DNA from: Somniosus microcephalus
Lineage: Eukaryota
Reading direction: 5' to 3'
Assembly: GCA_052327205.1 (NCBI GenBank)
Contig: CM126204.1
Span: forward strand, 227,974,001-228,038,000
DNA: 64,000 nt
Shown here: piece by piece, positions 28,108 through 33,384 of the stretch
Layout of the letters: every line of letters starts with the position of its first letter
Numbering within the stretch: the first letter of the stretch is position 1
Made by a program: the position numbers and the translations under genes
The notes under the pieces: generated by a model
Seen by the model: the letters and a program-made list of their open reading frames with translations, nothing else
Told to the model about the DNA's origin: nothing
The model's database searches: none

Positions 28108-30519
28108 CTGCAACAGAGGAACAAATGTGTTTCTAATTACTGTACAAATTAACACAAAAATACAGTTATTAAAACTATAAAAAGATTTTACAAGTACAGA
28201 GCTAAAGCAGAACTCCAGCAAGTTAACTATAAAACACGCAGAACTCTGATTCATGGGCAAATACAAGGCGAAAATTCAATTTAATCTCTCTTTACGAATG
28301 TTAACTATTTCACCTCTATCATAATTTACAGAAAACACAGCATGAAAAACATGCCGAATGGGAAACAGAATCAAGTTTTAAAAATATATTTATAAAATAT
28401 TTTATATGCACACATACATAAATATAATTAATCAAATTGTCCATCAAGAACTAAAATTGAATCCAGACATTTGCAGAGTCAATTTTGTAAAATCCTGCAC
28501 ATCATCTAGCAACAGCGAAATTGAGGCCATGTGTGGGACACTGCAGTGCCGAGCACATGCAGCTGCCAAACATATTCCTCAGCTTTAAAAATCTTTGCCC
28601 TTTATACGTTCAATGTCTTTTCGCTCCAAACCACAGACATATTTTCCCAATTTCTTAAAATCAATACAATCATTGCTGTCCTATTGGTTCGTATATTGGG
28701 AGTGGAACATTTAAGAAAATATATTGTTAGTTACATCTGTGAATTCATACTGTACAGGGTTAGATGTAACCAGTCAGCAAGAAAATTTATCGGCATTTCA
28801 ACAAGTGACTGTTCTAGCCTAGACTGTAGAAACATCTTGCGCAGCCACAGCAGGTGAATTAAGATTGTTTCTAATATCCATTATTGCTAAAATGGCAGCA
28901 GTGTAAAGGTATATTCACCAAAAAATGAAAATTTGAGCAAAACATTTTTTAAGAACATGCAAGATAGAGCCTGCCATTGGTTGGTTGTATATTGTGCCTT
29001 CAGTTTAATTAATTGCACTTAATCCCAACAAAAACAAACGGGAAGAGGAAATCCATATTATGCACAACGACATGGCTAACCCTTTCGTAATTGCAGTTTT
29101 CTATTCTTTATTGCAGCCTTTTGAATATATGCTGGTCGGGCCCCTCCTTTGCCCTGTCGACACGCTTTCTCTCAGTGACATGATCTTGTAGCCTGTAACC
29201 AGGCTCCATATGCGTGCTCTAATCGCCATCACTGCCACAACTTTATTCGTACAGTTACACAACACATCTATATATATAAAGCGGCTCTCCTGTCTGTCTG
29301 TCCCGATGTCTGTCTGTCTGTCTGTCCGTGTTCTATACGTTTGAAAGTTAGAGTGTACCGACGCGCGCGTCGCCTCAAAAGAAAGCTTGCGATTCCGGAC
29401 CGGTCATAGGCGTATTTACGTTTCGGCCGCACAAAAATCCCGCCCGCGGTATCCGAAAAACGTTCAGCGTTCCGCTCATTAGCATCTCATTAGCGACCGT
29501 GTGACGTCGAGGTCGACCAATCGGACGGCGGGTTCCTGGCGCGTGCCGTCCGACAGTTGAGTGTCGAGTGACTCGACGATTGACCAATCCTAAGCTTCGG
29601 TGACCTGACCGGTCGACCAATCGGTGCGTGTGTGGGCGGGCCTTATCCTTCTGAACCGAGGTGAGTGGCCGCCATCTTGATTTTTCACGATTTTTTCCCC
29701 CACACTTTCTGTGTGTTAGGGAACTAAGGTAAATATTTGAATTATGTGTTAGGGAATTAATTAACAATTTATTTGAGTTTTATATTGTGTTTAGCAACCC
29801 CCCCCCCCCCCCCTCCTCCTCACCCTCGCGCAGGGGACACTCGGGGCTGCTTTCCAGGCCCGAAGCTTAAAAAATTTCTCTCTCTCCTTCTCCTCTTCCC
29901 TCTCTCTCTCTTTCTCCTCTTCCCTCTCTCTCCTTCTCCTCTCCCCTCTCTCTCTCTTTCTCCTCTTCCCTCTCTCTCCTTCTCCTCTTCCCTCTCTCTC
30001 TTTCTCCTCTTCCCTCTCTCTACTTCCCCCTCTCAGGTTTGTCGGGGCCGGAGCGTGGACGGGCCGGCCGAAGTGAGCCGCTCGCTAACGGCCGCCATCC
30101 CGCGGGGTTTCCCTGCCTATTCCCCGCAGGCCGCCTCGCGCCGCTGGCACTGACCGCGCATGCGGGGGGGGGGCGGGGCGGGGCTCGGCTCGGCTCGGCG
30201 GCTGGTGCTTGGAGAGCGGGGCTCTCGGCGGGGGGTGGGGGGCAGGGCTCGGAGAACGGGGCGAGGCGGCTGGTGCGGGGGAAGAGGCCCGGCGCACGCC
30301 TGACACGTAAGGAGGATCTTCGTTCACGTTGGGCGGGTTCCTCGGGTGCTGACCCCTGGCGGTGTGGGGCCGGAGCCCGGCTCTTACCTTGCCCCGGAGA
30401 GCGGGCGGATGGCGGGGCCTGGAGTAACAAATCGGCCGCAGCGGCAGCTGAGCTCCGGTGAGCGGCGGCGGGCCGCAGCGGCAGCTGAGCTCGGGTAAGT
30501 CGGGCCGGACCAAAGGCGA

Positions 30520-31990
30520 GGGGGGGAGGGAAGAGAGGGTGGGTGGGGGGGGGGAGGGAAGAGAGGGTGGGTCGGGGGGGGAGGGAAGAGAGGGTGGGGA
30601 GGGGAGGGAAGAGAGGGTGGGTCGGGGGGGGGAGGGAAGGAAGAGAGAGTGGGGGGAGGGAAGAGCGAGTGGGGGGAGGGAAGAGCGAGAGAGAGGGTGG
30701 GGGGGGAGGGAAGAGAGAGAGGGGTGGGGGGGGAGGGAAGAGAGAGAGAGGGTGGGAGGGGGGAGGGAAGAGAGAGAGGGTGGGGGGGAGGGAAGGAGAG
30801 AGAGGGTGGGGGGAGGGGAGGAGAGACTGGGGGAGGAGAGAGACGGGGGAGAGAGAGAGAGAGATGGGAGAAGGGAGAGAGAGACTGGGGAGAGAGAGAG
30901 ACTGGGAGATCGAGAGAGAGGAGCGACGGGAGCGCGACCGGGGGGGGGAGCGAGGGAGCGCGACCGGGGGGGGAGGGAGCGAGGGAGCTGCGACCGGGGG
31001 GGGGAGCGAGGGAGCGCGACCGGGGGGGGGGAGCGAGGGAGCGCGACCGGGGGGGGGGAGCGAGGGAGCGCGACCGGGGGGGGGAGCGAGGGAGCGCGAC
31101 CGGGGGGGGGGAGCGAGGGAGCGCGACCGGGGGGGGGAGCGAGGGGAGCGCGACCGGGGGGGGGAGCGCAGGGAGCGCGACCGGGGGGGGAGCGAGACGA
31201 CGAGGGAGCAGCGACCGGGGGGGGAGCGAGGGAGACGCGAGCGCGACCGGTGGGGGAGCGAGGGAGCGCGACCGGGGGGGGAGCGAGGGAGCGCGACCGG
31301 GGGGGGAGCGAGGGAGAGCGCGACCGGGGGGGGGAGCGAGGGAGCGCGACCGGGGGGGGGAGCGAGGGAGCGCGACCGGGTGGGGGAGCGAGGGAGCGCG
31401 ACCGGGGGGGGGAGCGAGGGAGGGGAGCAGGGAGCGCGACCGGGGGGGGAGCGAGGGAGCGCGACCGGGGGGGGAGCGAGGGAGCGCGACCGGGGGGGAA
31501 GAGAGAGCGCGACCGGGGGGAAGAGAGCGCGCGACCGGGGGGAAGAGAGAGCGCGACCGGGGGGAAGAGAGAGCGCGACCGGGGGGAAGAGAGAGCGCGA
31601 CCGGGGGGAAGAGAGAGCGCGACCGGGGGGGAGAGAGAGCGCGACCGGGGGGAGAGAGAGCGCGACCGGGGGGAAGAGAGAGCGCGACTGGGGGGAAGAG
31701 AGAGCGCGACTGGGGGGAGGGGAGGGCGCGACTGGGGGGAGGGAGGGAAGGGAGGGCGGGGAAGGGAGGGCGGGGAAGGGAGGGCGGGGGAGGGGAGGGC
31801 GGGAGGGGGGAGGGCGGGAGGGGAGGGCGGGGGGGGGGAGGGCGGGGGGGGGAGGGCGGGGGGGGGAGGGCGGGGGGGGAGGCGGGGGGGGGAGGGAGGG
31901 GGAGGAGGAGAGGGAAGAAGGGGCAGGGGGAGGGAGGGGAGGAGGGGAAGGGAGGAGGGCAGGAGGAGAGAGGAGAGGGGAAGGGGGAGA
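30520..31990 (+). repeat. G-rich minisatellite block
   Basis: Successive units GGGAAGAGAGGGTGGGG, GAGCGAGGGAGCGCGACCG(n) (~25 bp), GAAGAGAGAGCGCGACCG(n) (~23 bp), GGAGGGCG(n). Confidence 0.95.
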
Positions 31991-32240
31991 GTCCACGAGC
32001 CCCCTGATCCCCGTCCCCCCAAACTCCCGAGCCCCCTGATCCCCACCCCCCGAACTCCAGAGGTTGGCCCCCCGAGACTCGCACCCCCACCCCCACCCCC
32101 GAGGCTCGCCCACCACCCACCCCCACCCCCGAGGCTCGCCCACCACCCAACCACCCCCGAAGCTCGCCCCCCCCACCAACCAAGCACCGAACTCCGGAGG
32201 CGCGATCTTCCGAGCACCGGCCTCCTGAGCTGGCTTCAAC

Positions 32241-32538
32241 ATTGCGGCTGTGCGAGACGGCCGGAGGGCCCGGTTGCCAGGGTAACCGTGACGCTGACCA
32301 AGCCCCGCCCCCCGGCCGAGCCAGAGAGACGCCGCGTCTCAGCTGCTCTGCTGCTGCGCGCGGCCTCCCCCCCGGGGGTCGCGGCCCCCCCCCCTCCCCC
32401 CGAGGTGAAGACCGCCGATTGCGGCTGTGCGAGACGGACCGGCGGGCCCGGTTGCCAGGGTAACGCTTGACGCTCAGCAAGCCCCGCCCCCCGGCCGAGC
32501 CAGAGAGAGACGCCGCGTCTCAGCTCCTGCTGCGCGCG
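32241..32538. promoter_or_regulatory. Two ~120-bp direct repeats, each with an RFX X-box, TGACG half-site and GC box
   Basis: GTTGCCAGGGTAAC at 32273-32286 and 32451-32464, each followed by TGACG and CCCCGCCCC. Confidence 0.6.
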
Positions 32539-33384
32539 CACCCTAGCGGCGCTGGGCTGAGGCTCGGCCCTCCAGCCTTCGAGTGGGGCCGGGAGGTGCC
32601 TAGCTCGGGCGTGGGTGCGGAGGAGACGCCGAGGCTTCTAGGCTACCTGGAAAAACGGGGAAAGGTAGGAAAATTAATGAGATTAGATAAGTTAATTACT
32701 TTCTAAATCATTTTTTTTAAAACAATATGTGTTTTAAAAGCAACGTTTTTTTTTAAGACGCGGAAAGCGGGAAAAAGGAAAAGTTTGGAATCAAGATGGC
32801 GGCGACTCACCTCGGTTCAGAACGATAAGGCCCGGCCACACACGCACCGATTGGCCCGGCGGCACACGCCAGCAACCCGGCTTACAATTGGTCGAGCTCG
32901 AGGTCACTCTGTCGCGAATGAGCGGATAATGAGATGCTAATGAGGCGGAATGTTGAAGTCTTTTGGGATACCGCAGGCGCGATTTTAGCCCGGCTGAAAC
33001 GTAAATACGCTTAAAACCGTCTCGGAAGCGTAAGCTTTCTTTGGAGGTAACGCGCGCGTAGGTACGCCCTGTAACTTTCGAGCGCATACCCGACAGACGC
33101 ACACGCGATGACAGACAGACAGACAGAATGACAGAAAGAAGTACCGATTTATATATATAGAGAGAGATAGAGATAGAGAAGATATAGATAGATAACCAAA
33201 CTAACTGGTGCTCAGTAAAACTGCCATCGATTCTATTTGGAGCCCTTGAAAATAATTTTTTTTGCTTATTTCCATCGATAAACTAGGCTATTTTTCTAGG
33301 TTGGTGGATCCCAAGGTGCTCGAACACTAATTCTGACAGCATCATACCTGATGAGGTCACTAGTGCAATATGTAGCTGCCGCCA

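Follow-up and report, generated by a model that had tools for sequence, protein, structure and literature searches.

The locus considered here, in which two Helitron 5' ends face each other and no 3' end is present, raises the question of whether it belongs to a mobile family whose members have two origin-type ends or is a rearrangement of single-headed elements. The window is the whole stretch of 64,000 nucleotides that was analysed (Somniosus microcephalus, GenBank assembly GCA_052327205.1, contig CM126204.1, positions 227,974,001 to 228,038,000 of the forward strand), and all coordinates below refer to it. As had been predicted, TCTATATATATAAA reads inward at both termini, at 29267 on the plus strand and at 33161 on the minus strand, with no third site in the window, and (CTGT)n comes next after each of them. 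The arms are colinear inverted homologues over about 350 bases, a point on which BLAST and global alignment concur: BLAST of the left against the right arm gives one segment of 306 columns at 75% identity (E 1.6e-53) and another of 66 nt at 95%, and the global alignment has 302 matches among 348 paired bases in 443 columns with gaps, the left arm being longer than the right by about 60 bases. The proposed end of the element at 33161 is correct as the inward-reading terminus and fails as the true right boundary, which lies 31 bases further out, after a stuttered 5' end (33162–33192, minus strand) of repeated TCT/TCTA pieces preceding the head; such stutter occurs in many sibling copies, and the host T (plus strand) stands here at 33193. 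Read from the sequence, the right A|T junction is 33192|33193 and the left one 29266|29267, and at both of them a 5' TC begins right after a host A. No target-site duplication is visible at the flanks of the composite.

The absence of a 3' end and of a coding domain from the element was also confirmed. Neither family's 3' end occurs in the window between 27,001 and 36,000, and the long frames have no Pfam match. Two stop-free frames, of 391 aa and 740 aa, run across GC-rich satellites; we set these long interior frames aside as composition artefacts. With two heads and zero 3' ends the composite does not follow the Helitron rule of one 5' end plus one 3' end.

If the two-headed arrangement were a family, its relatives should share it. 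The assembly (6.4 Gb) was searched, each genome search scoring the best 40 of 745–2677 candidates, so that a rare sister copy could escape. There were 2153 first-look candidates for the left arm and 2677 for the right one; in each case the best 39 others were taken, which are 98% identical to the left arm and 97–98% identical to the right arm, respectively. About 8.6 kb inward of the arm was fetched for each of these 39 left-arm and 39 right-arm relatives, together with relatives of the interior: 20 of the 39 listed for its left part (A2) and the 20 best additional ones of about 39 listed for its right part (B). A same-strand 3' end follows the head in 30 of the 39 left-arm (lineage A) relatives; eight have none within range (four of these with a gap), and in the remaining one an inverted head is reached only across a 500-N gap. 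In lineage B the same-strand 3' end is found behind 38 of 39 heads, once past a short same-strand head fragment, and a gap intervenes in the other case. All 20 B-interior relatives have a normal 3' end a few hundred bases beyond the module, and the 20 A2-interior relatives divide into ten with a 3' end, eight with none and two with an inverted head, both of which were resolved as non-equivalent. Overall, 88 of the 98 nearest relatives of the arms or the right interior have their own conserved CTAG 3' end, and no gapless two-headed copy exists among the 118 fetched relatives of arms and interior.

The candidates for a second two-headed copy were rejected one by one. L131 is explained by its own flank, duplicated in inverted orientation (96% identical) beyond a gap, and the heads of L180 face each other only across a gap. 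L126 is a single minus-strand copy with an inverted internal A2 piece bounded by satellites, and its neighbour locus L181, fetched as such and excluded from the relative counts, has no plus-strand head in the 10 kb upstream of L126. L133 and L130 are oriented head to head, not tail to tail, and are not equivalents of the composite. We also observed that L191 and L192 (C5:141.4 Mb and 139.9 Mb) have a common 5' flank and tandem array, which marks them as a segmental or assembly duplicate and not as independent insertions.

The lineages to which the arms belong are canonical Helitrons with a RepHel partner sharing their termini. A T comes right after the CTAG 3' end in 88 of 92 cases, the 3' flanks are AT-rich, and the 5' contexts, available for 71 of the 78 siblings, are mostly A|TC or tandem CTAG|TC. 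In both end types folding puts a 3' hairpin where one would be expected, not better than in shuffles (z of -1.39 and -0.49), and the 3'-end sequence is conserved across copies. The RepHel search yielded at least 150 scored matches of 407 candidates, all listed ones above the Pfam cut-off. Many of the matches lie in open frames of more than 1000 codons, some of them lengthened by satellite or N, and have termini in common with the non-autonomous lineages. Among ten long-frame RepHel loci that were fetched, a related head lies upstream in seven and the same 3' end type downstream in eight. In the gapless locus L215/L216 a B-type head (94%) is followed by a stretch full of satellites, into which an LTR element has inserted, then by a frame with Rep and PIF1 and by the 3' end; at L213/L214 a 90% A-type head precedes a Rep and PIF1-type frame across a 500-N gap. 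The genome thus holds a young Helitron burst.

Lineages A and B share with canonical Helitrons (Helitron1 type; Helibat1/Helraiser, HelibatN), as far as these are described in the accessible text of PMC4778049 and PMC5876387, the 5' TC after a host A, the 3' CTAG before a host T (with a palindrome that is predicted in A and B), the AT-rich 3' flank, the absence of target duplication and the RepHel partner. Unlike them, they contain G/A and C/T satellites of kilobase size that vary in length, and the composite in the window, again unlike them, has two 5' ends and zero 3' end. The parts of the composite are of an already-known kind, and the composite itself does not qualify as a Helitron, as a TIR element or as a mobile family.

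Its anatomy can be followed from left to right. The 5' head, or left terminal sequence, of lineage A (29267–29690, plus strand), which has about 98% identical copies genome-wide, consists of the TC start after the host A, (TA)n, (CTGT)n and a set of motifs: CCAAT in three places, one GC box, and one motif each of the YY1-like and splice-donor-like kinds. The interior of sub-lineage A1 follows on the same strand (29691–30164), with an AT-rich stretch, a CT-rich satellite (29878–30034) and a GC-rich module, and passes into sub-lineage A2 at a private, single-copy junction (30160–30175), both sides of which are on the plus strand. When this junction (about 30,165) was used as a query of 261 bases, all 39 other scored matches spanned just the first 123–125 of them. 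The A2 interior module (30172–30510, plus) has 96–99% identical copies, its tiles matching A2 siblings on the same strand, and is followed by the A2 G/A-rich satellite block (30511–30930, plus), in which the same-strand alignment with the A2 sibling L125 continues to about 30,930. The left half is thus a single-copy chimera of two same-strand copies, A1 and A2.

The right half reads in the opposite direction. The head of lineage B (32780–33161, minus; 97–98% identical copies) is joined to a B interior (31986–32779, minus; 94–98% identical copies) with an internal duplication (32241–32361 and 32418–32539), and then to the C/T-rich tail of lineage B (31441–31985, minus), which, being reversed, reads as G/A-rich and whose tiles match B siblings reversed; the reversed alignment to the B sibling L246 runs down to 31,631, where the tail of L246 ends. 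Interior tiles match same-strand siblings until about 30,800, whereas from about 30,950 onwards it is reversed siblings that they match, and the switch of strand polarity maps within about 30,930–31,440. This interval is filled by a private satellite array (30931–31440; period 26, 18.5 copies), which contains the strand switch, can be assigned to neither strand as a whole and occupies the expected position of both 3' ends. Its tiles have reversed sibling tails as best matches, no oriented sibling locus among those fetched contains its exact unit words, and it grades into the B tail unit; the units at 31,140–31,260 appear noisy.

These data bear directly on the two options that the original prediction had left open. 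The relatives of the arms are single-headed with normal 3' ends, the outcome that the prediction itself had named as refuting a new family, and each head belongs to its own young, high-copy lineage, which supports the alternative that two related Helitron 5' ends were fused. Membership in a mobile non-autonomous family having two origin-type ends, or in a family of TIR-type DNA transposons, would account for the colinearity of the arms across about 350 bases and for the A|TC rule at both ends, by which the composite resembles one insertion between A and T. We consider it highly improbable, however, in view of the 118 relatives lacking the arrangement, of the interior junction being single-copy and of the arms being much closer to their own lineages (97–98%) than to each other (75% by BLAST), unlike TIRs; nor is there a visible target-site duplication, and the empty allele described below does not join the flanks. 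The undescribed family envisaged in the original prediction is therefore not upheld, and the evidence does not call for a new two-5'-end family. The composite is single-copy and has not spread, as judged from the best 40 matches per search.

The same comparison changes how the CpG content of the arms is to be understood. CpG is indeed abundant in them (observed/expected 1.51 and 1.46, versus 0.50 and 0.41 in the 2-kb flanks), as had been noticed, and this contrast with the flanks stands. The accompanying puzzle, namely that CpG was kept despite divergence in place, does not: the left arm is 98.4% and the right arm 97.3% identical to its own lineage, whereas the two arms are about 85% identical over locally aligned bases. 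On these identities the arms did not diverge in place, each being 97–98% identical to its own lineage, and the puzzle largely dissolves. The A and B heads show little sign of methylation-driven decay. In the closest copies, to which this sample is biased (L061–L100 and L162–L200), differences at CpG sites are about 2.3 times as frequent as at other sites in A heads and equally frequent in B heads. The CCAAT, GC-box, YY1-like and splice-donor-like motifs in both heads, whose positions were computed, would be in keeping with a promoter rich in CpG that had come down from the autonomous parent.

Whether the composite could have entered the genome as a unit was approached through its flanks, both of which are single-copy in the assembly. 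Public contigs, examined on the left flank, show this flank continuing into the lineage A head in organisms C and D, and the left insertion is therefore real and common to them. A contig of organism A (run X1; 45 differences in about 1010 bases, i.e. about 95% identical) tracks the left flank to 29269 and then enters sequence unlike the right flank, of which one contig from one run displays 30 letters of loose end. The anticipated empty site of one insertion is thus not what was found, as this allele leaves the left flank without reaching the right one. The first 30 letters of its continuation are absent from the window and from the assembly at up to three mismatches, in a search whose sensitivity for an orthologue we estimate, by our own arithmetic from the divergence, at about 9 in 10. 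On the basis of this one contig from one run, the composite was not inserted whole at a single target site. The continuation not being in the assembly, host DNA between two insertion points is likely missing, a conclusion that depends on the same contig. On the middle join the public contigs are silent, since short-read contigs cannot span satellites.

How, then, did the two heads come to be joined? Many siblings possess a G/A-rich block and then a C/T-rich tail of related units, and a reversed neighbour therefore offers same-sense homology. We think it probable that the composite consists of neighbouring opposite-strand Helitrons joined by deletion between same-sense satellites, the join being as read from the assembly. 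A plus-strand copy (the A1/A2 chimera) and a minus-strand B copy would have inserted independently at neighbouring sites; B's C/T tail, once reversed, would then read as the same-sense G/A satellite of A2, providing direct homology; and annealing or recombination in the satellites would have removed both 3' ends with the intervening host DNA, leaving a product with two start ends and zero terminator. Satellite homology may accordingly be seen as a plausible cause of the join. Deletions in Fusarium have been ascribed to recombination between Helitron copies (PMC13342296, accessible text).

The same homology could have deceived the assembler. Two intact opposite-strand Helitrons with intervening host DNA might exist, their ends having been joined in the assembly via look-alike G/A satellites, and we regard such a collapse as possible, though distinctly less probable than a deletion in the genome. 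A 500-N scaffold gap lies downstream of the module, within the satellites or right behind them, in 15 of the 20 A2-interior siblings, which means that this class of sequence breaks this assembly, and in 10 of the 39 A-head siblings such gaps stand before the next end or head. The apparently two-headed L131 and L180 arise solely across gaps, L131 having the look of a false inverted duplication; a loss of long reads at GA-rich DNA has been reported, in the accessible part of PMC9186530; and the expected host DNA was not found in the assembly. Three features of the locus itself, however, support a real event over collapse: it has no N gap; its strand-switch array is private and merges by degrees into the tail of B; and there is a second private junction, at about 30,165, away from the long satellites.

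A real join might also have come about through transposition or repair, with B landing in or beside A, or with synthesis switching to an opposite-strand template, the 3' ends and adjacent host DNA being lost without satellite annealing. The elements do cluster, 20 of 92 3' ends being directly followed by another head; L126 has an inverted A2 piece with satellites at its borders within a single-headed copy; maize is reported to have nested Helitrons and Helitrons with multiple termini (PMC3288121); and Helraiser transposes at a low rate without its right end (PMC4778049, both in the accessible text). Simple nesting, however, predicts the outer copy's tail and native flank past the B head, neither of which is present, and we hold this route to be unlikely. 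Deletion between satellites remains our preferred reading. A broader proposition, which presupposes a real join, is that satellites of opposite polarity let neighbouring opposite-strand Helitrons recombine like direct repeats, recurrently deleting host DNA and leaving two-origin, terminator-free composites that could start from either end and take adjoining DNA with them; this is in our opinion unlikely.

Several known systems share features with the elements described here. Lepidopteran Hel-2/Lep1-like non-autonomous Helitrons, which we liken to them by description, have the 5' TC, (CTGT)n near the 5' end and the 3' hairpin with CTAG; they differ in being a few hundred bases long, and they possess subterminal inverted repeats (PMC4344730, accessible part). 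In maize, Helitrons insert near or inside other Helitrons, with several 5' ends per copy (PMC3288121), nested and multi-terminus copies also being described in PMC2267711, and the FoHeli1-associated deletions of Fusarium, ascribed to inter-copy recombination, are akin to the deletion proposed here (PMC13342296); the accessible text of the maize and Fusarium reports (PMC3288121, PMC13342296), however, does not describe opposite-strand copies joined via opposite-polarity satellites. The Helentron-associated HINE and DINE-1 are likewise rolling-circle elements with a microsatellite and internal tandem arrays (PMC7492417, accessible text). Lineages A and B, in contrast to Helentrons, end in CTAG, start after A and have no Helentron subterminal-repeat structure, and they differ from HINE/DINE-1 in that satellites are present in both polarities. 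Within titles and abstract openings, a scope that leaves most subscription papers outside, we found no two-5'-end Helitron family in searches on inverted or two-headed Helitrons, and no Helitrons of cartilaginous fish.

The composite itself is a rearranged repeat locus, of little consequence alone. It calls for caution in repeat annotation, as composites of this sort look like long-TIR transposons inserted at one A|T site, and the satellites inside non-autonomous Helitron copies coincide with many assembly gaps. If satellite-driven recombination is true, it would offer a mechanism of host DNA deletion by Helitrons whose events can be counted.

Some minor observations concern the insertion preferences of the elements and of those inserted into them. 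There is a strong TA bias in the 3' flanks, which are similar to the elements' own 5' end (L061–L100, L121–L140, L162–L200), and the empty allele of the left site in the window likewise begins with TCT and is AT-rich. The head directly following a 3' end in the clustered cases is often of a different lineage. Stuttered 5' ends, with TCT/TCTA repeats before the head, were seen as a rough pattern in about 26 of 71 siblings and might reflect starts that were aborted again and again. Insertions resembling LINEs, with tails of the (GAATT)n type, recur inside the Helitron G/A satellites (L181:5606–8670, L126:270–1270, L125:3260–3540 and L128), hinting at a target preference. In the satellites of two Helitron copies, at L121 from 1922 (oriented) and at L216, there is apparently, by eye, one and the same family of LTR retroelements.
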